Source of the DNA: a bacterium | Lineage (GTDB): Bacteria > Patescibacteriota > Microgenomatia > Levybacterales > UBA12049 | DNA length: 64,000 nt | NCBI GenBank assembly: GCA_021777565.1 | Contig: JAJYDJ010000001.1 | Location: 88,431-152,430, forward strand | Direction of reading: 5' to 3' | In this document: positions 6,846 to 46,200 of the stretch, piece by piece | Layout of the letters: every line of letters begins with the position of its first letter | How positions within the stretch are numbered: position 1 is the stretch's first letter | The notes under the pieces: generated by a model | Databases searched by the model: none | What the model saw: only the letters and a program-made list of their open reading frames with translations | What the model was told of the DNA's origin: nothing | Made by a program: the position numbers and the translations under genes

Positions 6846-7826
6846 ATGTTTCCTGACGTGTTGGTCCCCACATTGCAGAATAAAGAGAAGGCGGCGTTGC
6901 TATTAAAAAGTTACGGGAAAGATACCCTTTCATACTTTCATCTCCAGGAAGAACGTCAACATTTTTTCTCTCCTTCTGGAAAGTCCTTTCTGTCATTTAA
7001 GGTGCTTAACCGTGTCGCTATCGTCGCCGCGGATCCCGTGGGCCTCTCATCTGAGCTCCCAATCCTTCTGAAAGCATTCCTTGATTATACTAAGACATGG
7101 AAGTTAGTGCCGTGTTTTGTCGGACTAAGTGCCACATACATCTCATGTATACAATCCTATGGACTTAAGACGAAAAAAATCGGGGAGGAGGCAATTTTGT
7201 GCACAGAGCATTTTCAAAGAGAAAATTTGAAGAAAAAAGTGAAACATACACTGCGACATTTGGAAAAAGAAAATAGTGAGGTGTTCTTTTTTACATCCAA
7301 AAATTTGCCAGATGCAATACGCCAACAATTGAAGATGATTTCTCAGAGTTGGATTCAGAAAAAAGGTGGAAAAGAGAAAGGATTTTCAATGACCCTGAAA
7401 AGACTGCCTAATGAATCAGATGAGGATTGTCTTTTTGCCGTTGCGATGCATAGGGATCTTGCCTTGGGATATCTTTGTTTTGTGCCAATTTATAAGTCAG
7501 CAACATTGTCTTTGGATCAAGCTCGTCAAAAGAGTGATGCACCCAACGGGCTCAATGAACTTTTGATCATAAAATCTGCAGAATACTTTAGAGAAAGAGG
7601 TATAAAGAAATTAAGTCTGAATTTTGCTGCATTCTCACAGGTCACAACGCCAAAAACAGGAATAAAAAAAACAGTGTATGAAATCTTGGGAAATCTATAT
7701 AAAAGTAATACGCTTAGAAAGTTTAATGAAAAATTTCTGCCTTCATGGGAAGATAGGTATATTGCCTATCAGAGCCTTGGTCACATGCCACTATGTTTAC
7801 TCGCCATTTTACGTGCAGAGAGATAG
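6846..7826 (+). CDS. DUF2156-type domain protein (C-terminal aminoacyl-phosphatidylglycerol synthase/LPG-synthase-like domain, stand-alone)
   Basis: Reads like the soluble C-terminal aminoacyl-transferase domain of MprF-family enzymes without the flippase TM domain. I recognise the fold family but cannot point to a named motif. TATAAT-N6-ATG start. Confidence 0.6.
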   Translation: MFPDVLVPTLQNKEKAALLLKSYGKDTLSYFHLQEERQHFFSPSGKSFLSFKVLNRVAIVAADPVGLSSELPILLKAFLDYTKTWKLVPCFVGLSATYISCIQSYGLKTKKIGEEAILCTEHFQRENLKKKVKHTLRHLEKENSEVFFFTSKNLPDAIRQQLKMISQSWIQKKGGKEKGFSMTLKRLPNESDEDCLFAVAMHRDLALGYLCFVPIYKSATLSLDQARQKSDAPNGLNELLIIKSAEYFRERGIKKLSLNFAAFSQVTTPKTGIKKTVYEILGNLYKSNTLRKFNEKFLPSWEDRYIAYQSLGHMPLCLLAILRAER

Positions 7827-9599: not shown

Positions 9600-9800
9600 G
9601 TGTTTAGTATACCAAAAACCGAAGCAAGAAAGTCTAGATAATGCCTTGTTTTTTCTCTTGCAGGGGTGGAGGGAATATGAGCTTGCTCGCTTTGCTGCGC
9701 TTCCTCATGTAATTGAGGATAGTGATCCTCGCTTTGCTCGTTTTCACTATCTACTCAATTATCTGAACCCATGGGCTTGATTCTACACCCACTCAAAAAT

Positions 9801-9832
9801 AAAAAGACCAGACTAAAGTCTGGCATTTTATT
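9801..9832. terminator. Bidirectional rho-independent terminator hairpin
   Basis: AAAAA-GACCAGAC-TAAA-GTCTGG-C-ATTTTATT: 6-7 bp stem flanked by an A-run and a T-run. It lies downstream of the minus-strand Nudix gene. Confidence 0.5.
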
Positions 9833-9834
9833 CT

Positions 9835-9870
9835 GCAGGGGCTAGTGGACTTTGTTAGAACTCATTTTAT
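9835..9870. repeat. Imperfect direct repeat, copy A (gcaggggctagtgGactTTgttAgaac...)
   Basis: About 80% identical over about 35 nt to 13885-13920. Sits in an intergenic 3'UTR region. Confidence 0.6.
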
Positions 9871-9899: not shown

Positions 9900-10358
9900 C
9901 TAGCTGAGTCCGACTGCATGGGCCAGAGGGACTTCGTGTCGTGCAAATAGAGCATTTAGGTATTCTTTTAAAGCCAGTATATAAGTCTTTGTAGATTCAG
10001 TAAGATGATGGGTGAGTGATTCATCAAGTGATAAAAATGCAATGGCTTGACCTTCCTCAGCTCCTAACTTAAAGAAATCCTGCTCGTCTTCTGTGATATA
10101 ACTCCAATATACATAAGTTTCTGACTGTTCATTCTTTTTTGCACCAATGTACTGTAGATTCTCTGGCGCATAGTTCACTTCTTCTTGTAGCTCCCGGCGG
10201 ATTGCCTGATCTGGAGATTCACCTTCTTCAATATAACCCCCAGGTAACTGCCATTGATTTGGATCGGCAATAGAAGGGATATTGTCTCTATGAAAGAATA
10301 GAACCTTATTTTGGAATATTATAATGGCTGTGACTACCTTTTTCATAGGGCATGACAT
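9900..10358 (-). CDS. Nudix hydrolase
   Basis: Nudix box 'GGYIEEGESPDQAIRRELQEEV' (GX5EX7REUXEEXGU); ATG at 10358. The ORF-track start 10367 is GTG. Confidence 0.75.
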   Translation of the reverse strand: MSCPMKKVVTAIIIFQNKVLFFHRDNIPSIADPNQWQLPGGYIEEGESPDQAIRRELQEEVNYAPENLQYIGAKKNEQSETYVYWSYITEDEQDFFKLGAEEGQAIAFLSLDESLTHHLTESTKTYILALKEYLNALFARHEVPLAHAVGLS

Positions 10359-10373
10359 ATAATGCACGTGACT

Positions 10374-11360
10374 ATGTGCAATAATCTACGATCTAAAGTT
10401 GAGTTTCTCGCAAGTCTCACACGCTGTCAAGAGTGGAAAGATACAAAGCTCAATTGGTATGTTTTTGCAGCGATCATGTATTTTCTCTCAAGAGGGGTAA
10501 GCCCACTACAACAAAATATAGCCTTTACATATCTAATCGTTCTTTTTTTTATTTATGCTTCCGCAGGAGCAATATCTAATGATTATGGTGATCTAGAACA
10601 GGATAGACTTTTGAAGAAGAAGAAAGCAATTTTGAGCTTAAAAGAGTCCAAAGTAGTTTTGCTCTTACTGATATTATCTGTTGTTTTTGAGATCGTAGTA
10701 CTAAATCTCACTCAAGCATTTGACTTCCGTTTTATACTAATTACCGTTGGCTACGGGATATGCCTTGAATACTCTTTGCCACCGTTGAGGTTTAAAGAGA
10801 GAGGTGTCTGGGGACTTTTGTTTGGTTCTATGGTGCAAAGAGCAATCCCGGTAGCGATACTCTTTACTATCTTCTCATTTTGGACTTTGTCAGGTGTTTT
10901 GTATGTGATATTCCTTATCATGGTTGGATTTCGGGCAATGATAGTCCACCAAATGAAGGATTATGAGAATGACATAAAATCTAGGACAAAAACAATGGCA
11001 ACCAACTCTGGAGTAGAGAGAATGGTAAAGTTGGAAAATGCCTCTTGGATTGTAGAATTATTAACTTTTTTTGTTTTTCTTATTTCTCTTACTCTTCAGA
11101 TGGAGAAATTATTCTTGTTATTCGGGTTTGTTACCTATTTACTAACATGGGGAGGTATTAAGCTGTGGAAGTATTCAATAATTCAGAAACTTAATAAGTT
11201 TAGCATGTCAAATGCTTTTCTAGCAGATTGGTATTACTGGTGGCTCCCAGCGATAGCAGCAGTTGCATTAGGTACGTATACTGGCAATTGGCTAGTACTA
11301 TTTTTTGTTGCTATTATGCAGCGTTTTCACTTTTTTAACCTGATTAAGAAATTTGTATGA
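10374..11360 (+). CDS. UbiA-family aromatic/polyprenyl prenyltransferase (integral membrane)
   Basis: Asp-rich motif 1 'NDYGDLEQD' (NDxxDxxxD) and motif 2 'KDYENDIKS'; 8-9 TM helices. Start at 10362 or 10374 is uncertain. TATAAT overlaps 10358-10363. Confidence 0.65.
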   Translation: MCNNLRSKVEFLASLTRCQEWKDTKLNWYVFAAIMYFLSRGVSPLQQNIAFTYLIVLFFIYASAGAISNDYGDLEQDRLLKKKKAILSLKESKVVLLLLILSVVFEIVVLNLTQAFDFRFILITVGYGICLEYSLPPLRFKERGVWGLLFGSMVQRAIPVAILFTIFSFWTLSGVLYVIFLIMVGFRAMIVHQMKDYENDIKSRTKTMATNSGVERMVKLENASWIVELLTFFVFLISLTLQMEKLFLLFGFVTYLLTWGGIKLWKYSIIQKLNKFSMSNAFLADWYYWWLPAIAAVALGTYTGNWLVLFFVAIMQRFHFFNLIKKFV

Positions 11361-12472
11361 AGATTCTCTATCATGCCATTAATAGTATTGGGGTTGGTCA
11401 TCTAAGTAGGCTTATTGGCGTGGCTGGTGGTATTCGTGAGATTAATCCTGGAGTATCGCAGCTGTTTTTAACTGAAGTCAAAGAGACAAAGTTTCTTAAA
11501 CTGCATAATTTCCCTTACTTCCCGTTGCCTTCCTTTCATGCGGTTCAAAAAGACCAAGAATGGTTAGGGATATTGAAGAGTAAAGAAATGTGGGTGAACA
11601 ATGTTAGCTCTCTCATTCATGCATATAATCCAGATATCATGATCTATGACACGGCAACATGGGCAGAAGTTTCTAATGCAGTGCGCACATGTCAGGTGAA
11701 GCCAAAGGAAGTCTTTATCCTTAGGGCCAGAAGGGATATGAAAAGATATTTTGAAGAGAATCAAGAAATTTTTTCACATTTAGACTTGCTTGTTTTCCCT
11801 CATTCAGAAGATGAATTAAACCCCGCGGAGATACCGCCTTACTTGCGTAAAAAGTACTTTGTGTCTGGAAGCATACTGCGGAGAGATGTCTCAGAAATAA
11901 ATAAAGAGGTGATTGAAGAGAAATATGCAGTAGAGGATGACTCTCAATTTATTATAACTGTGACAAACGGAGGAGGTAATTCATTACAGGAAGATAAAGA
12001 GCATTTCCTTCAGGATGTGCTACAGGCGATTTTTAATTGTGACGACAAGCTTCCTCCAAATTACAAAGTAATTGTTGTCGCTGGACCGCTTCTATTGAAT
12101 ATTACACTTCCTTCAATTCACTTACCACATGGTGAACTCATTATTCGTGAATATGAACCCTTAATGATCGATCTAATGGCGTTATCTAACTTAGTGATTT
12201 GTCGTGGAGGTTACAATACGATTAATGAAGTAATATCAATAAATACGCCAACTATAGCTATCCCTGCAGAGAGACTTTCAGATGACCAATTTAGTAGGGT
12301 AGAAAAAGTTGCTTCAAAGTCTGATAGTATTTTGCCAATAAGAATAGAAATGTTAGAAGATGCCTTGATAAATATTATACCAAAAGCTGTTTCATGGAAG
12401 TTCTGTGTTCCTGAAGTAGATGTGAGAAAGAAAAATAAGCTGAAGCTAGCTGAAAGGATCTTGAGTCTATGA
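11357..12472 (+). CDS. GT-B glycosyltransferase, GT28 C-terminal/PseG-SpsG-like
   Basis: N-terminal 'GVGHLSRL' (GxGHxxR) and C-terminal 'GGYNTINEVISINTPTIAIP' nucleotide-sugar binding region. The start ATG overlaps the UbiA stop. Confidence 0.6.
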   Translation: MKILYHAINSIGVGHLSRLIGVAGGIREINPGVSQLFLTEVKETKFLKLHNFPYFPLPSFHAVQKDQEWLGILKSKEMWVNNVSSLIHAYNPDIMIYDTATWAEVSNAVRTCQVKPKEVFILRARRDMKRYFEENQEIFSHLDLLVFPHSEDELNPAEIPPYLRKKYFVSGSILRRDVSEINKEVIEEKYAVEDDSQFIITVTNGGGNSLQEDKEHFLQDVLQAIFNCDDKLPPNYKVIVVAGPLLLNITLPSIHLPHGELIIREYEPLMIDLMALSNLVICRGGYNTINEVISINTPTIAIPAERLSDDQFSRVEKVASKSDSILPIRIEMLEDALINIIPKAVSWKFCVPEVDVRKKNKLKLAERILSL

Positions 12473-13155
12473 CAGAGCAAGAGCCAGTAGCAATTATTAC
12501 ATGTGGTGGTTTTGCGACACGTATGGGTGGAGAGCCTAAGTATCTTTTGCCTGTAACAGAGTCGGATAGAGTCATTGACCTAGCATTGGACCCAATCACG
12601 CGTCAACCAGAATTAGTAACTAGGCATGTTATTCTCGCTAGTGGGGCTCATAGAGAAGCCGTAGAGGATTATGCAGAAGTGTTGCGAGGCAGACACCCAA
12701 GTATAACTTTTGATATTAGTCATAGTAACCCTGAAGGTCAGTTTCACGCAATTGCACATGCTGCTGAAAAGTATGGAGTAGAAGGCAATGTAATTATCAT
12801 GAATGCAGACGAGATCGTGCCAGGGCTTGATTTAGTGTCAGCGCTGAGGGTGCATACAGACGCTCACCATAGTATTACACGCGTTGTCACAAGGGCAAGC
12901 AATGAAGGGACATCGTCTCTTAATGTTGATGAAGAAGATCGAGCTACGTTTTCTCAAACAAACTTTAGTGTATATGCAACTGGAGTCATTATTATTAGTC
13001 CATATGCAATGCAAATCGCAAAACAGTGTAGGAGTTCCCAGGAGTTTTGGGATATAATGACTACTACGCACCAAATACATGTTATTATCTGTGAAGCATC
13101 CTTGAATGTTAATACACCTGACGATTTAGAGGAAGCACGAAGGCGATTTAGTTGA
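12469..13155 (+). CDS. Nucleotidyltransferase (MobA/IspD-like NTP-transferase domain)
   Basis: 'IITCGGFATRMGGEPKYLLPV' matches GGxxxRMG...K of NTP_transf_3-type enzymes. The start overlaps the upstream stop. Confidence 0.55.
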   Translation: MTEQEPVAIITCGGFATRMGGEPKYLLPVTESDRVIDLALDPITRQPELVTRHVILASGAHREAVEDYAEVLRGRHPSITFDISHSNPEGQFHAIAHAAEKYGVEGNVIIMNADEIVPGLDLVSALRVHTDAHHSITRVVTRASNEGTSSLNVDEEDRATFSQTNFSVYATGVIIISPYAMQIAKQCRSSQEFWDIMTTTHQIHVIICEASLNVNTPDDLEEARRRFS

Positions 13156-13156
13156 T

Positions 13157-13855
13157 ATGAGCGATCTTATAATACCAAAACATCTGGGACTTATTGTTGA
13201 CGGTAATAGACGTTGGGCTAAAGCTCGTAATTTAAGTCCTCTCTATGGTCATGAAGTGGGAATTAGGGATGTGCTCCCTGGTATTATCAATCAGGCACAC
13301 AGGGTTGGAGTAGAGGAGGTTTCAGCTTGGATATTTTCAACAGAGAACTGGGACAGAAGTGATGAAGAGGTAGATCACCTGATGCAGCTTTTTATAAAAT
13401 TCACAGAGAGACTTTTGGATAGAGCAAAAGAGGATAGTATAGAAGTAAAACATGTGGGAAGAAAAGATCGAATTCCATCTCTATTAGTAGAGAGCTTAAT
13501 CAGGCTTGAAAAAGCCACGTTGGGACTTCCTAAAAGGCTCAATCTTTGTATTGATTTTGGTGGCAGGGATGAAATAGCGACAGCTGTTAGAGGCATAGTG
13601 AAAAATTGTGTCTCAGAAGAGAATATAGATGAAGGATTGATAGGTGATTATGTAAATAAATACAACGGTTTTAGGTTTAGTCCGGACCTTATTATTCGCA
13701 CAGGTGGGGCACAGCGTACTAGTGGCTTTATGGTTTGGGAAGCAGCGTATGCAGAGCTTGCTTTTGAAGAAAGTTATTTTCCTGACTTTACGCAGGATCT
13801 TCTAATGAAATGGCTTTCCGAGTACTCTTCGCGTGAAAGAAGATTTGGCAAATAG
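13157..13855 (+). CDS. uppS: Isoprenyl transferase (undecaprenyl-diphosphate synthase family, cis-prenyltransferase)
   Basis: 'HLGLIVDGNRRWA' and 'FSTENWDRSDEEV' UppS signatures. Confidence 0.85.
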   Translation: MSDLIIPKHLGLIVDGNRRWAKARNLSPLYGHEVGIRDVLPGIINQAHRVGVEEVSAWIFSTENWDRSDEEVDHLMQLFIKFTERLLDRAKEDSIEVKHVGRKDRIPSLLVESLIRLEKATLGLPKRLNLCIDFGGRDEIATAVRGIVKNCVSEENIDEGLIGDYVNKYNGFRFSPDLIIRTGGAQRTSGFMVWEAAYAELAFEESYFPDFTQDLLMKWLSEYSSRERRFGK

Positions 13856-13884
13856 ACTATTATCCTGTCTCGACGAGATCATCA

Positions 13885-13920
13885 GCAGGGGCTAGTGAAC
13901 TACGTTGGAAACTTTTATAC
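13885..13920. repeat. Imperfect direct repeat, copy B (gcaggggctagtgAactACgttGgaaac...)
   Basis: Matches 9835-9870. Sits between the uppS operon and the defense/mobile segment. Confidence 0.6.
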
Positions 13921-13947: not shown

Positions 13948-14694
13948 CTAAGGAGTGCTGGTGTTTAGTTCGTTGAATAGTTTGTCCATTTCTGTAACCA
14001 TTTCATTATTTCCTATCTCTTGTGCGTACTTCGATGCTATGCGGATATAGGAAACTATAGCAATGACCAAACCTATTCTTAGTGAGTGCTCAAAATTATC
14101 TTTCCATCGTTTTTTGCTAGAGAATATCTGTGCATCTTCTGATGAGAGGTGGTTCTTCCTGTTTCCTTGTATATATCCTTGAATCAAATCTGCCATCTGT
14201 GTTGTACTAACAATTTTTTCTTTTACCAACTCATCAATCATTCCTTCAACTCCAGTCATAGACCAAGAATTAGCTAGTCGGTCGCTTCTTGTAAAATCTT
14301 TTTTTACGTTCTCAAAGTCATCGATAATTTCTTTCTCAAGGCTGCTATCCATTGCTATACCCAGTTTTTTGAGATATTCAAAGTTGATCCACCTCTCAAC
14401 GTAATAAAATTTGAGAAACTTCATCGCCATATGATCTTTATCCTTGATAACCATGAATTCAATGGAAATCATATCCTCAAATATCCTTCTTGATAAATCG
14501 AGTATTGCATCGCATGAAAGCAAATCATCTTGAAGAAGAGCAATTGAGTGTAGAATAGGATAATTTCTCCTTGCAATTACCATGAGTGTTGCAATGAAGG
14601 GTGGTGTTTTCTCATCAATATCCTCGACTTCCCCAAATTCGTCGGATAAAGAAAGTAATTTGGACAATACTTTTTTTATTTCGTCTGTTCTCAT
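13948..14694 (-). CDS. Hypothetical protein with DUF4145-like 'GNxxxH' motif (possible HEPN-related/Abi-like)
   Basis: 248 aa; 'IQGYIQGNRKNHLS'; located in the AT-rich island. Confidence 0.4.
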   Translation of the reverse strand: MRTDEIKKVLSKLLSLSDEFGEVEDIDEKTPPFIATLMVIARRNYPILHSIALLQDDLLSCDAILDLSRRIFEDMISIEFMVIKDKDHMAMKFLKFYYVERWINFEYLKKLGIAMDSSLEKEIIDDFENVKKDFTRSDRLANSWSMTGVEGMIDELVKEKIVSTTQMADLIQGYIQGNRKNHLSSEDAQIFSSKKRWKDNFEHSLRIGLVIAIVSYIRIASKYAQEIGNNEMVTEMDKLFNELNTSTP

Positions 14695-14757: not shown

Positions 14758-15468
14758 TTACCCTATGTTGTCAGGCATCTCATCTTCATATTGCTTTGCA
14801 AGTTCAACATTGTCAATCCAATTAACGGTGAGGTGAATTAGGTCTTTAAGATTATCTAGGTCTTTATCATCCCACTTCCTTACATAGTGCGTCTCATCAT
14901 TTCCTAACCAAGCTGCTCGTCTTGCACATTTCTGAACTTGAGGATCAGCAATGGTGCCAATAACTGTACCAAGAAGGGTACTTTTTATTATTCCAATCTT
15001 TTTTTCTTTTTCAGCTCCATCTATATCAGGGATGAGATAGATCATATAGTCCTTTATGAGAAACTCTAGCGCCTTTCGATATCCTGGACCACATATAAAA
15101 TCGAGATTATTTCCCTCCGCAATTTGCGCTTGATGATATATTTCTTCAAAATCGCTCGAAATTCTATTGATTATTTTACTGAACTTCTCGCGATCTACGA
15201 TTGATAAGATCTCACGGGCATCTAATTCCCATATGTCACCATCGTATACATGATGCCTCGAATAAAATCCAAAGAAATTAAATCCGCACTCATTTCTTGG
15301 ACATTGAAAAACGAGTTGCAACATATTGCTAGTAGCTCTTATAGGAAGACATGCTTTAAAGATTGGTTCAATGCCTTTCTCACACGTAGGACACATATCT
15401 GGAAAACGCTCTATATGTCCTGTTACATGAGATCCATCACTGTCGGTATATTGAACTTTCCTATCCAT
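14758..15468 (-). CDS. Zn-ribbon plus DUF4145-like domain protein
   Basis: N-terminal 'CPTCEKG...CPRNEC'; C-terminal 'YRKALEFLIKDY...AWLGNDETHYVRKW...LIHLTVNWI' resembling DUF4145 (R..lGN..H). Confidence 0.5.
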   Translation of the reverse strand: MDRKVQYTDSDGSHVTGHIERFPDMCPTCEKGIEPIFKACLPIRATSNMLQLVFQCPRNECGFNFFGFYSRHHVYDGDIWELDAREILSIVDREKFSKIINRISSDFEEIYHQAQIAEGNNLDFICGPGYRKALEFLIKDYMIYLIPDIDGAEKEKKIGIIKSTLLGTVIGTIADPQVQKCARRAAWLGNDETHYVRKWDDKDLDNLKDLIHLTVNWIDNVELAKQYEDEMPDNIG

Positions 15469-15564
15469 ATTTCGGCTTCATTGTAGCATAATTCTTCACA
15501 GAACAGTCCAAGTGTGTAAATAAAATATAGTCTTTCATAAATCGTAGTGCTACAATCACCTCAA

Positions 15565-16449
15565 ATGGCAACCACGATAACCCAATCATTCTTAGAATTC
15601 AAAAATAACTTAGAGATAACTGGACTACAAGCAACTACAGTCTCTACAAGGCAAAAAAATGTACAAGATGCGATGCAAGCAAATATGAAAGTAGTAAAGA
15701 CGTTCCTGACGGGATCATATAAACGTCAAACAATGATTGCCCCATTAAATGAGGCAGATATTGATGTATTTGTGGTGCTAGATAATGAGTATTACTATCA
15801 CTACAATAATGGACAGAATGGTGGGCAGGCTGGGTTATTGGATTTAGTTAAAAGGACTTTGCTTCGTACATATACAAGAACTCCAGATATTGCGAGGGAT
15901 GGACAAGCAGTCACTATTCATTTCAGTGATTTTCTGGTTGATGTTGTACCAGGATTTAACAGACATGGAGGTGGATATTTCATTCCTAACTCCATTAAAC
16001 AAGAATGGCTTCGTACAGACCCAACGAAACACATCGAGTTGATCTCTTCTTCAAATATCGCACATGAAAACAAGTTAGTTCCTCTTATAAAGATGATTAA
16101 AGCATGGAATAGGAATACTGGCAGTTTTTTTCGTTCCTTTCATTTGGAAGCATTGGTATTAGAAATTATGCAATTTGTTACTATCACAGACTATCCATCA
16201 GGAGCACGGTACTTCTTTGATAAAGGCAGAACCCTCATTGCTAAGAAAAATCTTGATCCAGCAGGCTATGGTGATGACATTGGTTCATATATAAATAATG
16301 CTGATAAAATCAAAACAGCTGTCACCAAATTTGAAATGGCCTACAATAGGGCTCTAAAAGCTGAGGATTACGCAAGGAGAGGTTATATTTCTGATGCGAT
16401 TGGTCAGTGGAGACTTATCTTTGGAGGTTATTTCCCAACTTATGGCTAA
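15565..16449 (+). CDS. SMODS/CD-NTase-like nucleotidyltransferase (second-messenger synthase candidate)
   Basis: 'GSYKRQTMIAPLNEADIDVFVVL' (GS-x12-DxD), third acidic 'VDVVPGF', Mab21-like 'KAWNRNTGSFFRSFHLEALVLEIM'; TACAAT-N8-ATG start. Confidence 0.65.
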   Translation: MATTITQSFLEFKNNLEITGLQATTVSTRQKNVQDAMQANMKVVKTFLTGSYKRQTMIAPLNEADIDVFVVLDNEYYYHYNNGQNGGQAGLLDLVKRTLLRTYTRTPDIARDGQAVTIHFSDFLVDVVPGFNRHGGGYFIPNSIKQEWLRTDPTKHIELISSSNIAHENKLVPLIKMIKAWNRNTGSFFRSFHLEALVLEIMQFVTITDYPSGARYFFDKGRTLIAKKNLDPAGYGDDIGSYINNADKIKTAVTKFEMAYNRALKAEDYARRGYISDAIGQWRLIFGGYFPTYG

Positions 16450-16993
16450 GAATAAAAAAACAACCGCCACCGAAGTTATCGTTTCAAAGACAAAAGCTGA
16501 AATTATTAAAGAGGCTTTAAGGATTGAAGAGTCAACACGATATGCAGCAAAGAGTCACTATAATGATGGTGCCATGTGGGGATTTTGCCATTTATTGTTG
16601 GGTGTCCCTACAACGGTTCTATCAGCTCTTGTAGCCGTCAAATCTTTTGCACAATTTGATAGTAATCACAATACAGCTGGGATTATTGCATTAGTTGTTG
16701 CAGGGTTAAGTGGACTAATGACTTTTCTTAATCCTAATCAAAAAGCAGCTGTTCACCATAAAGCTGGAAGTGATTATGACTCTTTGAACAATAAAGTTAG
16801 AATCTTTAGAACAATTGATTGCTGGGGCAAAGATGCAGATATTGTTTTAACTGCGAGGTTGAAGGAATTCTCAGAAGAAAAAAGTAAACTACACGCAGAT
16901 AACCCTCAAACATCCTTCATTGGTTATACATTTGCAAAATGGGGCATCAAAAAAGGAGAAGCTGAATTTGTTGTTGATGCTAAAGAGGAATAA
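16442..16993 (+). CDS. Two-transmembrane SLATT-like effector protein
   Basis: The ATG overlaps the SMODS stop by 8 nt; two hydrophobic helices 'WGFCHLLLGVPTTVLSALVAVKSF' and 'AGIIALVVAGLSGLMTFLNP'; about 183 aa. Confidence 0.6.
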   Translation: MAKNKKTTATEVIVSKTKAEIIKEALRIEESTRYAAKSHYNDGAMWGFCHLLLGVPTTVLSALVAVKSFAQFDSNHNTAGIIALVVAGLSGLMTFLNPNQKAAVHHKAGSDYDSLNNKVRIFRTIDCWGKDADIVLTARLKEFSEEKSKLHADNPQTSFIGYTFAKWGIKKGEAEFVVDAKEE

Positions 16994-17160: not shown

Positions 17161-17589
17161 GTGAATATACATTTGTCACCACAAATCAAAAGTTGGGAAG
17201 AAGTATCAGTTTGCACAGATTTCGTGGCTAAAACACCTAACTATGTGCCAAAACTGCTTCATGCCCTAGAATATTCTTGTACGATCCAAGAGGCATGTCT
17301 GTATGCAGGGGTGCCTCGAAGAACCTTGTATAACCATCTCAAAACAAATCCTGAACTTGTAGAATTAGTCCAAAAAGCAAAGCGCTATCCAATCATACGA
17401 GCAAAATGGCGTATGATGGATATTATTGACCATGGAAATGATCGAGATGCAGGGATGATGATTCGCTGGTTCTTAGAAAGACAACAGCCTGAAGTCTATG
17501 GTAAAAAGGGGAGGATGACAGCATCATACCTAGATGCTTCCGTATCAATTTCAGAAATTCATGAGAATCAATTACCCCTTTTCTCCTGA
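17161..17589 (+). CDS. HTH-domain protein (phage terminase small-subunit-like N-terminus?), non-ATG start or 5'-degraded
   Basis: 'IQEACLYAGVPRRTLYNHLKTNPEL' HTH. The first in-frame ATG is about 85 codons in; the ORF track uses GTG. Confidence 0.35.
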   Translation: MNIHLSPQIKSWEEVSVCTDFVAKTPNYVPKLLHALEYSCTIQEACLYAGVPRRTLYNHLKTNPELVELVQKAKRYPIIRAKWRMMDIIDHGNDRDAGMMIRWFLERQQPEVYGKKGRMTASYLDASVSISEIHENQLPLFS

Positions 17590-17616: not shown

Positions 17617-18213
17617 TTACTTCTTGGGCGTGGGTGACACAATACCATCATAGACATATCCTGTCGTATTATCCGTCAAATAGGTCTCTACAATGTCTGT
17701 TTCTTGTACTGTGACACCAAACGCGTTTGGTCCAGATTTAATGCCAAGAACCGTGCCCCAGATTGTTATCGAGTCGCCTTTGTTTATTTGCTTGAGTGAC
17801 ATATCTGGATCTAATTCTATATATGCAACAATTCCATTATCACTAACATTCATCCCAGTGGTATTTCCTTTTGAATCTTGAATAAACTCAGAGACTTTTG
17901 CCGTAAACGCAACTGGTTTTGTTTTGTAAAAATTGGGTTGTTTAGCTAAGTCTGCAAGTGTGACATTCTCCATACGTGCCTTGTCTTCATTTGCTTTTGT
18001 TACCCAGTCTGTCGTAGGCTCTGGTGTGGTACTTATTGCCACTGAAGGGGTATCTGTGACTTGTGTGTCTACTTGCTCGGCTTGTGATATATCGCTTGGC
18101 GTAGTAGAGGAATGGATTATACCTACAATCACTCCAGCAACGACAATAACAACACAGATAATCCCAACAAGAGAAAGTCCATCAAAGATAATCTTTGGTT
18201 TTTGATTTGCCAT
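17617..18213 (-). CDS. Membrane-anchored extracytoplasmic protein
   Basis: Strong SD (AAAGGAGGTGAACAT-ATG); N-terminal TM 'IIFDGLSLVGIICVVIVVAGVIVGII' then a Thr/Pro-rich linker. Confidence 0.55.
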   Translation of the reverse strand: MANQKPKIIFDGLSLVGIICVVIVVAGVIVGIIHSSTTPSDISQAEQVDTQVTDTPSVAISTTPEPTTDWVTKANEDKARMENVTLADLAKQPNFYKTKPVAFTAKVSEFIQDSKGNTTGMNVSDNGIVAYIELDPDMSLKQINKGDSITIWGTVLGIKSGPNAFGVTVQETDIVETYLTDNTTGYVYDGIVSPTPKK

Positions 18214-18638
18214 ATGTTCACCTCCTTTCATATGCGCTGTATTGGCTGCAAATAAGTTATTGAGGGAACACAAAAAGCTCCCCCCAGCGATGGATTGCTC
18301 CACCTGCCGTAGTTTCCCACGACAACCTCAACAGCGCTCTGGAGAGAGCTTACTGCTGTTGAGGTTTTGCAACCATGCCTGTCAGAGTGACAAGTTTAGG
18401 TCGATAACTTGTACATGAATTGTACCATAAAGTGGAGTATACAGAAATGGACTTAGCCATAAATTTGAGTATTTTGATCAGACGGCACTTGTGCCGTCTG
18501 CACGATTAGCCACGAAAAAAAAATCATGCAACTGCCCTATAGTAAGCATCTTTGAAGCTAAGGGTAAAAAAAGTTAGTAAAGAAACTAATCCTCATATAT
18601 CTTTGTACTAGATCCAATAAATTCTTATTGGTGTGAAG

Positions 18639-19433: not shown

Positions 19434-20960
19434 ATGCTTCGCTATTTTATTTATTGTCGTAAGTCTTCTGAAGCGAGGGATCGGCAGGCACTCTCTATTG
19501 AAGCACAGAGAAGAGAGTTATCAGAATACGCCGAACGAAATAATTTGAAGGTTGTACAGATATTTGAAGAATCACAGTCTGCATATAAGTTAGGTCGTCC
19601 GATCTTCGATAAAATGATGAAAATGTGTGGGGAAGGATTGGCGAACGGAATACTCACTTGGAAGCCCGACAGACTCGCTAGAAACGCCCTAGACGGTGGT
19701 AAAGTCATTCAAGCACTAGATGATAAGGTTCTGCAAGAAATACGCACTCCATACGAAATATTTAAGCAAGAAGATAATCGTATGATGCTCTACGTGTTAT
19801 TTGGTATGTCCAATGACTTCTCACGACAAATTAGTGCAAATGTGAAGCGCGGGAATAGACAGAAGTATGTGAGAGGAGAATTCCTCGGAAAAGCTCCGGT
19901 AGGATATGTAAATGCTCAAATTGGTAACTCTCGTAATATCGTTCCAGACCCCGCAAAAGCCCCACTGGTAAGAAAACTGTTTGAGGAGTACTCGACAGGG
20001 AAATATTCAGTGATGCAAATTCTTACCATGGCACATGATCTCAATCTCACGTCTGTTTTTGGGAATAAATTTGTCAAAAGTGAGATGTATAGAGTCCTTA
20101 AATGTCCTGTCTATTACGGGGTATTTCAACATGGAGGAGAATTTCATAAAGGAAGCTATGAACCACTCATTTCTAAAGAATTATATAATAAAGTGCAAGA
20201 TGTTCTGGCAAATAGAAGTAAGCCGAAAAAACAAGATTGGATACATCCTTACATCGGCCTTATCAAATGTAAAAACTGTGGATGTGCGATCACTTGTACA
20301 ACAAAAGTGAAGCGATATAAACGCACAAATCGCACCGCTTCTTATACCTATTACCATTGTACAAAAAGAAGAGGCCCTTGTGACCAGTCAGCTGTTACCG
20401 AGAGTGAACTAGAGCGAATGCTTTATGAGCAAGTCGCTCAAATACATATTGATAAAGAGATTTGGGATTTAGGAGTGGAGTTATTAAAAGCAAAACATTC
20501 AAATGAATTTCAAGAGCATGAAAAACTAAAATTTAGTTTGACATTCGAAATTGAGAAGTTAGATAAGTGTTTAGAAAAACTTCTGACCATGCGTTTGAAT
20601 GAAGAGATTACGGCAAGTGAGTATGCAGATCAGAAGAAAGTGTTTATCGATAAAAGATTAGAGCTTCAGGAAAAAATGAATGACAGAGATCATTCAACCT
20701 CAAATTGGTTGGAACTCGCTGAAAACTTCTTTGAGACGGCATATCACGCACGAGAGGTCATGGAAAGTGATGATATGGATGCAAAGAGGGAATTAGTGCA
20801 AACTGTCGGTTGGAACCTCTTTTTAGACAATCAAAAACTCGAATTTAGCTTCAAAAAACCGTATGATGTACTACTCGTACCTGAAATAAAGGATAACGTG
20901 CAGGGGTGGAGGGAATCGAACCCCCAGTCGCGGTTTTGGAGACCGCTGGTTTACCGTTAA
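19434..20960 (+). CDS. Large serine recombinase (resolvase/invertase N-domain, recombinase domain, Zn-ribbon)
   Basis: 'YCRKSSEARDRQALSIEAQ' catalytic Ser region, 'DRLARN', Cys-rich 'CKNCGC...YYHC' zinc ribbon. The 3' end overlaps tRNA-Trp. Confidence 0.85.
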   Translation: MLRYFIYCRKSSEARDRQALSIEAQRRELSEYAERNNLKVVQIFEESQSAYKLGRPIFDKMMKMCGEGLANGILTWKPDRLARNALDGGKVIQALDDKVLQEIRTPYEIFKQEDNRMMLYVLFGMSNDFSRQISANVKRGNRQKYVRGEFLGKAPVGYVNAQIGNSRNIVPDPAKAPLVRKLFEEYSTGKYSVMQILTMAHDLNLTSVFGNKFVKSEMYRVLKCPVYYGVFQHGGEFHKGSYEPLISKELYNKVQDVLANRSKPKKQDWIHPYIGLIKCKNCGCAITCTTKVKRYKRTNRTASYTYYHCTKRRGPCDQSAVTESELERMLYEQVAQIHIDKEIWDLGVELLKAKHSNEFQEHEKLKFSLTFEIEKLDKCLEKLLTMRLNEEITASEYADQKKVFIDKRLELQEKMNDRDHSTSNWLELAENFFETAYHAREVMESDDMDAKRELVQTVGWNLFLDNQKLEFSFKKPYDVLLVPEIKDNVQGWRESNPQSRFWRPLVYR

Positions 20961-20972
20961 CCGACACCCCCG
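20902..20972 (-). tRNA. tRNA-Trp (anticodon CCA)
   Basis: Minus-strand cloverleaf: acceptor GGGGGTG/CACCCCT, anticodon stem GCGGT/ACCGC, loop CTCCAAA, T-loop TTCGATT; no encoded CCA. Confidence 0.8.
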
Positions 20973-25414: not shown

Positions 25415-27586
25415 CTATGGCTGTTCACCCCAACTGGTGAGTGTATCCTTCACTTTTTGATTATCGCCAAAGGTAGTGAGGAGATACCGGAGCTCACTTA
25501 CTGCTTCTGCTTCTTTTTGTTGATCAACAACTTTGCCTGCAGGATCGGTTGCCTGTTCGTGAAGGATTACACCAAGGGCAAAATACGCATCCTGATAAAT
25601 TGGACGAAGTTGGATAGTCTTTCTCAACATCGCAACAGCTTCGTCATTTTTGCCATTCTGGGAAAGAATAAGTCCATAATTGTAGGCAATCTTGGCATCA
25701 GTTGGAGCGAGCATGTGAGCGGTCTGGATGGCTTTAAGGGCTTGCGGCATAAATTGAGCAAAAGCAGTATCGTTAAGCTGTGCGAGGGTATACATAATAC
25801 GTACTCTGGTTTTCCAATAAGTCACGATATTTGGGTGTTGAGTGATGGTTTGGTCACTGAGCTCTACGGCTTGCTTGGCCAGTTGTGCTGCCTGAGAAGC
25901 ATCTTTGTTGGCTGCGTAGGCGCTGGCGAGGATAGCGGTATTGACGGAAAGTTCATCGCTAAATGTTGGTTCGTCGGGTCTGGCAGTGTAGGCATCCATG
26001 AGTGGCTGATAGGCACGATCGTATGCATTGGCGTGGTCAAGATTAAATCCATAGGCATAGGCTCGATCTGCGGCCCAATAGTTCATGAGGATCAGAATAA
26101 GGTAAACCCCAACAACTGCGCTGAGAAGGAAGCCACCATATTGCAGGGTAGTAAAACGGACTTGTTTGAAAGAAATCTCTTTTTGTGGCTCTGAAGTAAG
26201 AAGTATGGCAAGAGCTGGGAATACAAAGAGAAAAAGGTTAATCACGACAACCGAGAATCCAAAAAAGTTAGAGACAATCATCGTGACATATCCACCAAGC
26301 AGTGAGAGCACAAGAATCTTTGTGTGATCAGAATTTTTTGTTTTGAGAATGATTTTACTCATGAGAAAAACTGCCATACCAATCACAGCCAAGTAGGTGA
26401 GAAGTCCTATTGCACCAGTAGTTGCAAGATAGTTCAGGTATTCATTGTGAGCTTTGTTATAAAGATAATCCCACTCGGATGTCATGTTATGCCCTGCTGG
26501 TCTATATAAATAGTAGACAAAGGCAAATGTCTCAACACCTGATCCAAAAAGTGGATAATGCCTCCATGCATCCAGTGCGCCCCTCCAGACATAGAGACGG
26601 ATAGTACCACTGTCTGTCCCGCCCAGCTCACCAACAGGTTGGGCGGTCGTTGGCGCAGTAATCTTGGCAACTGGATGTGCTTTTTCTATCATTGCTTGGC
26701 GAATGCCAGGATAAGTAAATTTATCAAGCTGATTAAATGGGGTACCAGTGAAGAAAGTAATAACAACTATTACTGCAAAGATACTTCCGATAACATATCC
26801 TGCTTGCTTGATGTTTTTTGTATGCATCCAGAGATATCCGGCTGCCATGACTCCTAGTCCTGCAATAAGTCCCAAAAATCCTCCACGTGAGCTGGTGTAA
26901 AGAAAACAGAGATAAAACAACACACTTAGGAGCCCATATCCTGCAGTCACGTAGTATCTCTTCTCTTGCCAATAATTCAGTGCAAATCCCAGTGAGAGAG
27001 GGACAAGGGAGACAAGATAGGCGGCTAACCAATCTGGTTGGCCGAGCGTTGAGAAAATACGTACTTTTGGCTGAAATGCATCTGTCCAACACGATACATC
27101 CAATGTCCCACGGAATATATAGCAGGTTGGGTCATAGCCAAAATGACTGGGGAGTCCCCACAGACATACGGCAAGTCCTGAAAGCAGCGTCACTTGCAAA
27201 AGACGCGTCACTTTCATGCCATGCCAATTACTGATAAGTGCATAGTAGATGAATATATAGGAGAGAATGGAGAACATGCCGCCGTTGAATCGCGAATAGT
27301 ACCCCCACCAAGAGACATGGGTATCCAGAGACATAAACGTAGACAAAAGTTGTGAAATGATGAAAAGAACGAGTGGGATATCAAGAATGGTACGTTTAAA
27401 AATAACGCGTTTCTCAGCGATCATGCGCCATATCCAAAGTACACCGACAATGATGGCAAAGATGAACGTCAGCCACATTTTATTAAATTCAAATAATTCT
27501 GATGTGTCACCCCAGAAGGTAAGAGGAACGAGAAAAAAGTAGATATAAAATGACCAACGAATAAGTTTGGGGAGAAGACTCATCAT
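25415..27586 (-). CDS. O-antigen ligase/polymerase-like membrane domain fused to C-terminal TPR repeats
   Basis: About 10 or more TM helices plus a Wzy_C-like loop; C-terminal TPR-like repeats. Start placed at the MMSLLPK ATGs; the ORF track extends to 27658. Confidence 0.65.
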   Translation of the reverse strand: MMSLLPKLIRWSFYIYFFLVPLTFWGDTSELFEFNKMWLTFIFAIIVGVLWIWRMIAEKRVIFKRTILDIPLVLFIISQLLSTFMSLDTHVSWWGYYSRFNGGMFSILSYIFIYYALISNWHGMKVTRLLQVTLLSGLAVCLWGLPSHFGYDPTCYIFRGTLDVSCWTDAFQPKVRIFSTLGQPDWLAAYLVSLVPLSLGFALNYWQEKRYYVTAGYGLLSVLFYLCFLYTSSRGGFLGLIAGLGVMAAGYLWMHTKNIKQAGYVIGSIFAVIVVITFFTGTPFNQLDKFTYPGIRQAMIEKAHPVAKITAPTTAQPVGELGGTDSGTIRLYVWRGALDAWRHYPLFGSGVETFAFVYYLYRPAGHNMTSEWDYLYNKAHNEYLNYLATTGAIGLLTYLAVIGMAVFLMSKIILKTKNSDHTKILVLSLLGGYVTMIVSNFFGFSVVVINLFLFVFPALAILLTSEPQKEISFKQVRFTTLQYGGFLLSAVVGVYLILILMNYWAADRAYAYGFNLDHANAYDRAYQPLMDAYTARPDEPTFSDELSVNTAILASAYAANKDASQAAQLAKQAVELSDQTITQHPNIVTYWKTRVRIMYTLAQLNDTAFAQFMPQALKAIQTAHMLAPTDAKIAYNYGLILSQNGKNDEAVAMLRKTIQLRPIYQDAYFALGVILHEQATDPAGKVVDQQKEAEAVSELRYLLTTFGDNQKVKDTLTSWGEQP

Positions 27587-27672
27587 GATTTTTAGTATAT
27601 CAGAACTTTTATTTCTTTGTTGCAATAAGGAAATAATGTGCGATAATCCAGCTTCCATGCTATAATCAGCTC

Positions 27673-43204: not shown

Positions 43205-46200
43205 TTATCCTAGATATGATGGACTTTTAATATCACGTAAATACGTGAGCAATTTGGAGAATGAAATAGTAGCAACTCCCACACGGGTATCTGCGGCGCC
43301 ATAGTAAATATACAGGGTATCGTCTTTCACGACTGCACCACACGGGAAGACAACGTTATTCACGATCCCTGAAATCTCATACTGCTGATCTGGTTCCATA
43401 ATAGGCCATGGCGTGCGAGAAAGGACAATTGATGGGTCTTTCAAATCCAGAAGCATCGCCCCAACACGGTAAATATGGCTTAATTTACTCACGCCATGAT
43501 AGAGAAGCAGCCACCCATCTGGTGTTTTGATAGGCGGAGCACTGACACCAATTTTTTCACTATCCCAAGAATCTCCACGTGGGGGGATATAGGCATGGGT
43601 ATGCATCCAGTGGGTGTCATCAATTTGAGTGAAATCCTCGACAAAGCTCAATGCGATAGAGTTTTGCAGTCTATGAATCACACAGAATCTTTCACCAAAT
43701 TTTTCTGGAAAAAGTGCGGCATCTTTGTCATCAATTCCTGGCGGAGATAACAGAATTGGATCAGCCCAGTTATATTCGCGAGCGTGAAAATTGTCGATAC
43801 TTATCGATGTGAGCGCGACGCGGGGAGGTTCAACACCATTGTAGGCAGTGTAGGTAAGGTATAAGGTCTTATCAACGATCGTTGCTCGTGGGTCTTCACA
43901 CCCTGAATTATTGCCAGGATTTTTCTTGCGCTCAAATTCGGCACGAGGTACATAAATTGGGATTTCGCCACGTTTACTAATAGTAAGTCCATCTTTGGTA
44001 TCAGCATGACCAAGCACAGAGGTATTGTCTGTCGACATTGCCCGATACAAAATATGCAGTTCCTTATCTCTCGCAGCAGTACAATCTTCTGGGCTGATAC
44101 AGATGACAGCTGGATTAAAGACTGCTTTCTCTTCCCATTGATGCTCAGGTATTGGTGATAACAGTGGAGTGTCATATTTTTTTACACGGATTGGGACAAC
44201 GGCATTGGTACGCATATGGGCATACACATCATCAATATCAAAAGTGGCTAGCGCGCAGTACTGATCCGCAGCACCATAGTAAACATATAGAAGTCCACTG
44301 ACTATTGCAGCACCTGTTGGGAAGACAACTCGTGGTGCAATACCATTAATCTCATACGTCGCCTCAGGAGTAAGAATAGGACTTTCTGTCCAGGCAATAA
44401 TATTGTATGGGTTGTTTAGATCAAGAAGGACTGCCTCCACACCTAGGATACGTTTATCGGGCCTATCATAATGTTGCATGTGGCTGTAAATAAAAAGCCA
44501 TCCTTTTTCTGTCTTGATCGGGACTGCGCCAACTTCTACCTGGTCTGAGGTCATACGTCTCACAGGAAGGATGTGTTTATCAAGCTCGCGATACCACTGA
44601 TTCCAGTACATCTCGTCCCACATGTCTTCTTTTTTGTCGAAAGTGGCAATACAAATTTGATCGGGCTTTGGTGGCACATCCGTGTCAACGGTCAAAAGAG
44701 CAACATACTTCCCATTAATTTTCTCTGATAAAAGTACCATGGCTTTGGCATTAAATGGCGTAATAAGATGTTTCTCAGGTTTTCCAGAAAGGTCAGTGAA
44801 GAGAGCAAGGCCAACTTTAATGTTATCCGGGCCATAGGGGAATCCACCCAGAGCCGTGTAGAAGACAAAATACTCATTATCCACTTTACAGATACGAGGG
44901 TCTTCACACCCATATCTGTCCCAATCCTCAGACGGGACAACAAGCTGTCGTCGACGAGTGAAGTGAATACCATCTTTGGTGTCAGCAATGCCAACGGTGC
45001 GCAGATTCAGTTTATGACCTTCATAGTCCTGCTCAGCACTGTCTGCACGGTAGACAAAGCGCACTGCATGAGGCTCAATGAGTATTGATCCATTCATTGT
45101 CCCTTGGGCTTCCCATGGATGCTCTGGATCAGGAGAAAGAATAGGATTTTGGGTACTTCGTGCTGCCTTTTTGGTATCAAAGAGTGACTGAATAATCGGG
45201 TGGCTCAATTTTGCTACTTCAGAATATTTCAGCTCAGAGAGGAACTGTTCGAGATTGGCTGTCGCGACACAGACATGCCAATCAGCGCCACCATAGTATA
45301 CGTATAACGTGTCGCCGATCACGACTGCTCCACAGGGATAGACGACGCCACCTTTAAAGCCTTCCCATTCATACCAGGCTTCTGGTTCAAGAATAGGTGC
45401 CTTACTTCTGGCAATCACTTTTGTAGGATCATCAAGGTCCAGAAGCATTGCCCCGACCAGATATCGTCCGGCTCCTTCTTGATCACACGTGCCATGATAA
45501 ATCAGAAGCCATCCATCTTTTGTTTTGATAGGAGGTGCACCAGCGGCAATTTTACGACTGTCCCACATATCAGGACGGGGAGAGATTTTAAATTCACCTT
45601 TAAGGAAATTATCCTTCCCATCAAATTCCAGACTGTCGACAAAGTCAATCAAAATGTCAGGGAAGATGCGGTGCATGACGACATATTTACCGTTTACTTT
45701 CTCTGGGAAAATAACGGCATTTTTATCAATGACCCCAGGAGGGGAGATGAGGACTGGCTTTTCCCAGAGCCAGCGTTTGTTAAGAAAATCTGCTGCTGCG
45801 ATAGAGGTGAGAGCGATACGAGGTTGGTCATAGCCGTTAAAGGCCACATAGGTCATGTAGAATCTATCACCAATGCGCGTAATGCGAGCGTCTTCGACAC
45901 CACCACAGCCACCGGCTGACATGTACTCTGTTACGACTTCTTCAGGCTTTATATATGGTGTGTACTCAAATGGCTCACTCGGACGATAGATTGGTTCTTC
46001 AAGTCTTTCATCAATATGGATACCGTCACTACTGGACGCATATCCCACTACTGATACCCAGTCATCTCCTTGTGCACGGTAGAGAATGTGAACTTTGCCA
46101 CTGTCATAGATTGCGGCGGGGTTAAAGGTGCCATGAGATTCCCAGGCGGTGGGCTGTGGCGCGATGAGCGGATTGGTTTCAGGACGTGCAAGATGCAAGG

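Follow-up and report, generated by a model that had tools for sequence, protein, structure and literature searches.

A set of five genes in a 64,000-nt stretch of contig JAJYDJ010000001.1 (positions 88,431 to 152,430; the whole of this stretch is referred to as the window) was found to constitute a conserved cassette on an integrated, phage-like element. The cassette consists of a MutT-like Nudix hydrolase gene (Nudix) that diverges from an operon encoding a UbiA-superfamily prenyltransferase (UbiA), a GT-B glycosyltransferase (GT), a MobA-like nucleotidyltransferase (NTP) and a UppS-type cis-prenyl diphosphate synthase (UppS). We estimate a probability of roughly 50% that Nudix and UbiA-GT-NTP-UppS together form an accessory mobile cassette for the synthesis of a glycosylated isoprenoid lipid of the membrane. 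The five enzyme families are all known and the parts are individually ordinary; the finding itself is real and conserved, and the combination of these families on a mobile element is unusual. For a cassette of a cis-prenyl synthase, a UbiA protein, a GT-B enzyme, a MobA-like nucleotidyltransferase and a Nudix hydrolase, the searchable literature yielded no description.

Organisation of the cassette

A preliminary description of this DNA had proposed a four-gene operon of UbiA, GT, NTP and UppS genes, and the list of open reading frames (ORFs) indeed contained these four genes in succession on the plus strand (Table 1), each with Pfam or NCBIfam matches above cut-off. The overlapping stop and start codons that had been reported at all three junctions were present at two of them, with an ATGA at 11357 (UbiA/GT) and another at 12469 (GT/NTP). 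At the third, the TGA of the NTP gene ends at 13155 and the ATG of uppS starts at 13157, leaving a 1-nt spacer and no overlap. No terminator was detected within the operon, the first one appearing only downstream of the flanking repeat, and UbiA-GT-NTP-UppS is a single tightly packed, translationally coupled operon.

To these four genes of the cassette, the divergent Nudix gene, absent from the preliminary description, has to be added as a conserved fifth. Its start codon and that of UbiA are only about 15 bp apart, and a perfect TATAAT on the plus strand (10320-10325) is located within the 5′ end of the Nudix gene, preceding the UbiA ATG by about 37 nt. Among cassette copies in which the corresponding flank was visible, five out of five carried the Nudix gene, and it was linked to UppS in three lineages.

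Direct repeats flanking the operon had been noted as well, and a 29-nt imperfect pair (D1a and D1b, identical at 24 of 29 positions) was recovered. This pair encloses the Nudix gene together with the operon, and not the four genes alone. Markov-random sequences of equal size contained a repeat pair of this quality in 1% of cases (p about 0.01), and the 29-nt repeats were not found at the other cassette loci. Conceivably, they are secondary recombination sites, in which case the cassette would have been acquired as a module in its own right. They have a GCAGGGG core and a few further bases in common with the tRNA-Trp 3′ end, and their interpretation as relic tRNA ends is only weakly supported.

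Table 1. Position of the cassette, of the element that carries it and of associated features, in nucleotides of the window.
Feature	Position	Strand	Basis or remark
Left copy of exact 18-nt direct repeat TGCAGGGGTGGAGGGAAT	9659-9676		Repeat search; att-like island boundary
Terminator-like hairpin, bidirectional	9807-9824		3′ of the Nudix gene
D1a, left copy of 29-nt imperfect direct repeat	9832-9860		GCAGGGG core in common with tRNA-Trp 3′ end
MutT-like Nudix hydrolase, 148 aa	9900-10346	-	PF00293, Nudix box; divergent from operon
UbiA-superfamily intramembrane prenyltransferase, 332 aa	10362-11360	+	PF01040, motifs, AlphaFold2 model; uncharacterised clade
GT-B glycosyltransferase, 371 aa	11357-12472	+	Glyco_tran_28_C domain, model
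MobA-like (NTP_transf_3) nucleotidyltransferase, 228 aa	12469-13155	+	PF12804, signature
UppS-type cis-prenyl diphosphate synthase, 232 aa	13157-13855	+	PF01255, TIGR00055; distinct cassette subclade
D1b, right copy of 29-nt imperfect direct repeat	13882-13910		Repeat search
Weak DUF5677 protein	13948-14694	-	Island cargo
phrog_1305 'DNA binding protein'	14758-15468	-	4e-31; island cargo
CBASS oligonucleotide cyclase and overlapping SLATT effector with two transmembrane segments	15547-16993	+	Island cargo
Small-terminase-like protein	17161-17589	+	Island
ORF weakly resembling phage outer-membrane and Sie-like proteins	17617-18303	-	Island
LOOT RNA (Rfam RF03000)	18289-18402	-	82.6 bits, gathering score 46.4
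Large serine recombinase/integrase	19434-20960	+	phrog_95, 6e-77
Right copy of 18-nt repeat	20899-20916		3′ end of tRNA-Trp
tRNA-Trp gene	20900-20971	-

Location on an integrated element

The cassette is part of the cargo of an integrated, phage-like element of 11.2 kb that also carries defence genes, and is located at the att-distal end of this element. The repeat TGCAGGGGTGGAGGGAAT, which was the sole exact 18-mer repeat in the window, delimits this island, its right copy being the 3′ end of tRNA-Trp. The GC content amounted to 38.0% for the island and 39.0% for the cassette, in agreement with the earlier remark that the block is AT-rich, versus 43.7% outside the island, where no 11.2-kb segment fell below 42.8% and the lowest 4-kb segment reached 41.1%. 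The large serine recombinase gene runs with its last 61 nt or so antisense through tRNA-Trp. Because tRNA sites are more typical of tyrosine integrases, the pairing of a serine recombinase with tRNA-Trp is unusual. The tRNA-Trp 3′-end repeat, the serine integrase and the low island GC make horizontal acquisition, which had been suggested for the operon block, well supported, and extend it to the entire tRNA-Trp-associated element.

Recurrence of the gene set in divergent lineages

Because the gene set recurs in rearranged order, in about nine divergent lineages and at 26-62% identity, there is good evidence for a functional association of its members. The Nudix gene stood divergent from UbiA-GT in locus L083 (identities of 50%, 29% and 46%, respectively) and in one 44.8-kb contig lineage (L163-165; 36%, 28% and 36%), the latter continuing with a TIR_2 gene and lacking NTP and UppS. 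Locus L082 combined recombinase and transposase fragments with the C-terminal half of a UppS gene, a Nudix gene and a UbiA gene (49%, 46% and 33-37%). UbiA-GT was located beside pilin-like genes in L166 (UbiA 38% over a 66-aa fragment, GT 33%), and L167 contained UbiA-GT-NTP (UbiA 36% over a 44-aa C-terminal fragment, GT 43%, NTP 35%), while a GT gene (34%) in L168 followed a partial ORF that gave no UbiA match at E 1e-3. NTP-UppS was present in L170 (43% and 62%) and in L169, where the pair was divergent from a Nudix gene and a gene for a 487-aa protein (45%, 43% and 53% for Nudix, NTP and UppS).

Counting confirmed UbiA genes only, UbiA was adjacent to GT in 5/5 cases (L168 contributing an extra GT behind its unconfirmed ORF) and NTP was adjacent to UppS in 3/3 cases, with GT being followed by NTP in 2/5. 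Within the cassette, Nudix/UbiA/GT and NTP/UppS behave as two sub-modules that both associate with Nudix, the NTP/UppS pair being optional.

A search of reference genomes with an 8-sequence UbiA alignment revealed no close copy. Distant relatives of UbiA were examined at 160 loci, taken from reference genomes and metagenomes, and no UppS, NTP-transferase or Nudix homologue was located within about 8 kb; only the two closest UbiA relatives carry such neighbours. Linkage of the operon genes, the conservation of which the preliminary description had left to be checked, is kept among close relatives.

The 487-aa protein of L169, encoded on the minus strand (607-2070) between the Nudix gene and the NTP-UppS pair, is rich in Lys and Ile; it had no Pfam match on record, no credible PADLOC match and no PDB sequence match.

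The UbiA-type prenyltransferase

The UbiA protein matched PF01040 with 57.2 bits (cut-off 34.2). Both Asp-rich motifs listed in the preliminary description, NDYGDLEQD (N73..D81) and KDYEND (D200..D204), were present and coincided with columns that do not vary in an alignment of 31 clade members, with N73, D77, D81, D200 and D204 being retained in all of the cassette copies (four compared). The signatures of the clade, NDxxDxxxD, YSxPPxRFKERG and HQxxDxxxD, were also retained in all cassette copies. Its AlphaFold2 model (predicted local distance difference test score, pLDDT, of 93.5) displayed the all-alpha, multi-transmembrane UbiA fold, and Foldseek returned AfUbiA, DGGGPS, UBIAD1 and ApUbiA as top matches with a probability of 1.00. 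Judged from motifs and models, UbiA, GT, UppS and Nudix all look active.

When the clade profile was compared with PDB sequences, chlorophyll synthase scored best (9e-17), followed by AfUbiA (1e-8), DGGGPS (2e-6) and DPPR synthase (9e-4). This last match (8j8j) covered only positions 11-129 of the profile, its N-terminal third, and DPPR synthase was not among the Foldseek top 50 for the UbiA model. The analogy with the decaprenylphosphoryl arabinose (DPA) pathway that had been drawn earlier thus turned out to be the weakest of the UbiA comparisons, and a specific sequence relationship to DPPR synthase of the Rv3806c type was rejected, with ChlG, AfUbiA and DGGGPS all scoring better. Moreover, the island and its flanks contained no gene for a DprE1/DprE2 epimerase or a phospholipid phosphatase (PAP2).

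Neither did the protein belong to a housekeeping clade, a possibility that had been raised together with loss of operon linkage. No MenA or CyoE (heme O) match was obtained with NCBIfam, and curated subfamily models were missed by a wide margin (PRK12884, 38 bits vs 269; ChlG, 23 vs 313; BchG, 22 vs 212). The cut-offs of the housekeeping clades (MenA, UbiA/COQ2, CyoE/COX10), of ChlG/BchG and of DGGGPS were also missed by the 10 nearest relatives.

When 5.8 billion proteins were searched by word index, UbiA retrieved nothing but itself. An exhaustive HMMER search yielded 1,366 relatives, of which the best was 37% identical. This wider clade of about 1,400 members appears uncharacterised as a whole. 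It includes natural fusions to cytochrome P450, to a PhyH dioxygenase with TPR, and to GT41 with TPR (P0022, P0024, P0030, P0034, P0050 and P0152). Its immediate neighbours included radical-SAM/SPASM/B12 proteins (15 of 108), GT2 enzymes (eight), trans-polyprenyl synthases (six), P450s (five) and FAD oxidoreductases (five), as well as methyltransferases. Such surroundings point to specialised isoprenoid-lipid tailoring, in which a chain synthase would supply the prenyl diphosphate donor to UbiA.

The UppS-type chain synthase

UppS was recognised by PF01255 (Prenyltransf, 3e-60) and by TIGR00055, with 187.7 bits against a cut-off of 109.55. The canonical motifs claimed for it were all found (DGNRRWA, FSTENW, RTGG.QR.SGF and ERRFG), although the picture of an entirely canonical enzyme had to be qualified by an Ala at the position of E. 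coli E198; moreover, an Ile occupies the position of E. coli A69. The Rv1086 sequence used in this residue comparison was 100% identical to PDB 2vfw. Together with its cassette counterparts (62, 58 and 53% identity) the protein forms a subclade, the next Patescibacteria UppS proteins (Shapirobacteria, Roizmanbacteria and Microgenomates) being about 44% identical.

The A69-position residue is Ile or Leu throughout the cassette subclade and A, G or C in the housekeeping UppS of the candidate phyla radiation (CPR), and the C15-forming Rv1086 has Leu at this position. This residue reportedly limits chain length. The bulky Ile/Leu is a hint, and a hint only, that the UppS product may be shorter than C55.

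The glycosyltransferase and the nucleotidyltransferase

Of the PseG/GT28-like label previously given to the GT, the second half was confirmed by Glyco_tran_28_C (40.2 bits, cut-off 22), and the first was not, the PseG model TIGR03590 reaching 24.8 bits vs 153.55. An identity as MurG was rejected as well (TIGR01133, 33.2 bits vs 250.25). Conserved motifs were NSIGxGHLSR near the N-terminus and RGGYNTxNE...PxxRxSDxQ near the C-terminus. The structural model (pLDDT 81, predicted template modelling score 0.82) showed a GT-B fold with two Rossmann domains, and its 372 PDB matches at E <= 1e-3 were all GT-B enzymes, with GT1 natural-product glycosyltransferases, MurG and UDP-GlcNAc 2-epimerases as structural neighbours. 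Identity to any solved GT remained below 18%, and the word-indexed search of the 5.8 billion proteins returned only four relatives.

The NTP-transferase matched NTP_transf_3 (PF12804) with 33.8 bits (cut-off 27) and carries the N-terminal MobA-type signature GGxxxRMGGxxKxLL, here CGGFATRMGGEPKYLL, which was conserved in four cassette copies. All four had IPCT and TIGR00454 as best matches. Full-length alignments of the family profile were obtained with the CTP:inositol-1-phosphate cytidylyltransferase of A. fulgidus (2xme, 3e-5) and with CobY. Assignment as IPCT itself was rejected (NF041135, 24 bits vs 580), so that this resemblance is a lead to the class of substrate only. It suggests that the enzyme activates a phosphate monoester, either a sugar-1-phosphate or a polyol phosphate, this being a prediction that does not pin down the exact substrate.

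The Nudix hydrolase

The Nudix protein matched PF00293 with 66 bits (cut-off 21). Its Nudix box GX5EX7REUXEEXGU, here GGYIEEGESPDQAIRRELQEEVNY, is intact, and the catalytic R-E...E-E residues were conserved in five copies. The nearest solved relatives were MutT, CTP pyrophosphohydrolase, DIPP and NudI, making the protein generically MutT-like. A match to the PADLOC candidate PDC-S07 was also obtained (1e-15).

Proposed pathway and alternative explanations

For the glycolipid cassette we infer the following substrates, order of steps and product. UppS would condense isopentenyl diphosphate (IPP) into a Z-prenyl diphosphate, the chain of which is possibly shorter than C55. UbiA would bind this prenyl diphosphate via its two Asp-rich Mg2+ sites and prenylate an acceptor, which is probably phosphorylated or bears a hydroxyl or carboxyl group. 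The MobA-like nucleotidyltransferase would generate a head-group donor activated as a nucleoside diphosphate (NDP) derivative, and the GT-B enzyme would add this activated donor to the lipid. Nudix, finally, may trim a diphosphate (from prenyl diphosphate to prenyl phosphate, or from the product) or may free the acceptor from a nucleotide-linked precursor. Prenyl diphosphate is the proposed donor for UbiA because the clade profile is nearest to enzymes using such donors (ChlG, AfUbiA and DGGGPS), and because distant clade members adjoin trans-polyprenyl synthases (6 of 108), radical-SAM/B12 proteins, P450s and GT2s. The structural matches of the GT, including the GT1 natural-product enzymes and MurG, all glycosylate lipophilic or lipid-linked acceptors. 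Given its place next to the att site of a phage-like island with defence genes, the cassette probably serves as a conversion trait of the surface or membrane.

With regard to Nudix in particular, hydrolysis of prenyl diphosphates is an activity of MutT-like members of its family, plant NUDX1 and E. coli NudI/NudJ among them, and we know of no dedicated cytoplasmic enzyme established in bacteria for the step from prenyl diphosphate to monophosphate. That Nudix serves as a cytoplasmic prenyl or polyprenyl diphosphate diphosphatase, turning freshly synthesised UppS product into its monophosphate at the cytoplasmic face, nevertheless seems to us unlikely.

Several observations weigh against a joint glycolipid pathway. 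Three lineages have UbiA-GT without NTP-UppS, and L169 has NTP-UppS-Nudix with an unrelated 487-aa protein in place of UbiA-GT, so the five genes are not an obligate unit. The plant C20 enzyme CPT2 keeps Ala at the A69 position in the alignment, which weakens the chain-length argument, and the Ala at the E198 position might lower the activity of the UppS in the window. All eight contigs with an identical flanking CDF protein carry the island, and no empty site was seen among them; nor was a cassette copy found in viral contigs scanned with UbiA and GT. Because the island contains no flippase or GT-C enzyme, surface display is unsupported by gene content. Finally, none of UbiA, GT, NTP and Nudix reached a curated subfamily model: the cassette passes known families at the superfamily level only, with TIGR00055 for UppS in addition.

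A carrier pathway resembling that of DPA would be a possible, if doubtful, alternative. UppS would then produce a long polyprenyl diphosphate for conversion to polyprenyl phosphate by Nudix in the cytoplasm, and UbiA, acting in the manner of mycobacterial DPPR synthase, would add to it a phospho-sugar from a diphosphate-activated donor, for instance phosphoribosyl pyrophosphate (PRPP). The NTP-transferase would provide an NDP-sugar with which the MurG-like GT extends the lipid-bound sugar, resulting in a carrier or donor for envelope glycosylation, while a UppS of its own would prevent depletion of the host carrier pool. Such a pathway would fit the linkage of Nudix to both UbiA and UppS wherever the flank is visible, the prenyl diphosphate hydrolysis by MutT-like enzymes, the matches of the GT to MurG models (below cut-off) and structures, and the GT-C (PMT_2) and Wzy_C-type enzymes of the host genome, which would use polyprenyl-phosphate-linked donors. 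Carrier sequestration that is relieved by a larger decaprenyl phosphate pool is, moreover, documented for the corynebacterial DPA pathway (PMC3937683). However, DPPR synthase was precisely the poorest match of UbiA, partial in sequence and absent from the top structural matches, and the cassette and island contain no DprE1/DprE2-like epimerase, PAP2 phosphatase, flippase or GT-C. The distant clade members are neighboured by prenyl diphosphate synthases, P450s and radical-SAM proteins rather than by glycan-assembly genes, and the bulky residue at the A69 position speaks against a C50-55 carrier chain. 

Two further explanations dispense with a membrane lipid altogether or with any joint pathway. 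We consider it very unlikely that the cassette is a defence or conflict module, in which Nudix and the nucleotidyltransferase would produce or degrade some signal or toxin derived from a nucleotide, possibly one that is prenylated, in a function joined with that of the CBASS genes and other island cargo. The defence-rich island, in which the cassette is accompanied by CBASS, the TIR_2 gene beside the cassette in L163 and the PDC-S07 match of Nudix would agree with such a role, as would the ability of cis-prenyltransferase-fold enzymes to prenylate nucleosides (Rv3378c). The PDC-S07 match, however, reflects generic Nudix-domain similarity, and UbiA, GT, NTP and UppS were without PADLOC or PHROG match. 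UppS also keeps the full set of IPP-condensation motifs at about 44% identity to ordinary UppS, and GT-B and UbiA are more simply explained by lipid glycoconjugate synthesis. Least probable of all is that the genes share no pathway, UppS being the housekeeping undecaprenyl diphosphate synthase for peptidoglycan and its neighbours unrelated envelope genes in a compact genome. It is true that UppS passes TIGR00055 at equivalog level, that its nearest general relatives are housekeeping UppS proteins of Patescibacteria and that the island is present in all eight contigs sharing the CDF protein. Yet the set recurs in rearranged form across divergent lineages, the operon genes overlap, and the island around the block is low in GC, has att-like repeats and encodes an integrase. 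UppS, moreover, belongs to a separate subclade with changes proximal to the active site, and cassette copies without UppS exist, so the housekeeping uppS of those genomes must be located elsewhere.

Relation to known systems

The DPA pathway of mycobacteria and corynebacteria (UbiA/Rv3806c DPPR synthase, fed by Rv1086 and Rv2361c) is similar in that a cis-prenyl diphosphate synthase and a UbiA-superfamily enzyme lead to a lipid-linked sugar. It differs by its DprE1/E2 epimerase and PAP2 phosphatase, which the cassette lacks, and by the mycobacterial genes being neither in one operon nor mobile; conversely, the cassette adds Nudix, a GT-B enzyme and a MobA-like nucleotidyltransferase. In the DPA pathway, the supply of carrier is known to interact with its consumption (PMC3937683), and the concept of UppS offsetting carrier sequestration derives from PMC3937683 and PMC12826051.

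The archaeal ether-lipid pathway, including AfUbiA, provided some of the nearest solved structures and profiles (AfUbiA, 4tq3/4tq4; DGGGPS, 6m31/7bpu) and follows the same logic of a prenyl diphosphate synthase, a UbiA-type transfer to a polar backbone and a nucleotide-dependent head group. In contrast, the UbiA of the window is far below all DGGGPS equivalog cut-offs, the archaeal chain synthase is of the trans type whereas that of the cassette is cis (UppS-type), and the cassette contains no GGGPS/PcrB or CarS homologue, its nucleotidyltransferase being soluble and MobA-like. ChlG/BchG, the best profile match, has the YSxPPLxLK loop and both Asp-rich motifs in common with the UbiA clade, but UbiA reaches 22-63 bits where cut-offs demand 212-436, a tetrapyrrole context is missing, and the HQxxDxxxD and KERG signatures are the cassette clade's own. 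The GT shares its GT-B fold, Glyco_tran_28_C domain and G-x-G-H N-terminal loop with MurG/GT28 and GT1 enzymes.

Further leads, and leads only, are the lysogenic-conversion cassettes of temperate phages (gtrABC beside int/att) and the prenyl-phosphoglycerate glycolipids of the moenomycin type. The former resemble the cassette as small envelope-glycolipid modules beside the att site of a phage-like element, and the latter as phosphoglycolipids built from a prenyl chain, a phosphorylated small acceptor and glycosyltransferase steps. The cassette nevertheless has no GtrA/GtrB/GT-C and no MoeO5-type TIM-barrel enzyme, and the likeness of chemistry is unproven. The closest themes in the literature are the DPA pathway, archaeal ether lipids and clusters with a UbiA gene that spread by horizontal transfer, for example the one of six genes in eustigmatophytes (PMC5133447).

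If the host belongs to the Patescibacteria/CPR, as the nearest UppS relatives, the size of the 953-kb contig and the gene content indirectly suggest, the cassette would allow a lipid-dependent episymbiont to produce or remodel an isoprenoid glycolipid by means of genes that are traded horizontally, with a bearing on envelope biology, phage/host recognition and carrier-lipid economy. It could even, although this seems unlikely, be a self-contained kit with which a lipid-auxotrophic CPR bacterium builds its own archaeal-style, short-chain isoprenoid glycolipid. The cassette would in turn serve as a test case for the acceptor used by a ChlG/DGGGPS-like UbiA clade of about 1,400 members, and for the question whether prenyl diphosphates are substrates of a bacterial Nudix enzyme.

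Other genes of the element and of the window

Adjoining the cassette within the island are a weak DUF5677 protein and a phrog_1305 protein, a pair that may be another defence or phage-derived module. The cyclase of the cyclic oligonucleotide-based antiphage signalling system (CBASS) was recognised by NF041117 (1e-58) and by PADLOC Cyclase (5e-102), and its SLATT effector by NF033632 (1e-27). A DUF5659 protein is also among the island genes between the cassette and the recombinase. The LOOT RNA is located directly 5′ of the minus-strand ORF with weak resemblance to phage outer-membrane and Sie-like proteins, with a slight overlap, so that this orphan RNA motif may have a cis-regulatory or island-borne function.

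Just outside the island, a stand-alone LPG_synthase_C protein (MprF C-terminal, aminoacyl-phosphatidylglycerol synthase) is encoded at 6846-7826 on the plus strand. The host backbone also encodes a Wzy_C/O-antigen-ligase-like protein with TPR (25415-27658, minus strand) and a PMT_2 GT-C glycosyltransferase (55089-56732, plus strand), both of which are potential consumers of polyprenyl-phosphate-linked sugars. Finally, the minus-strand gene at 43205-47050 specifies a 1,281-aa protein with four GH130 (beta-1,4-mannooligosaccharide phosphorylase) stretches (3e-153), which is unusually large for this family.

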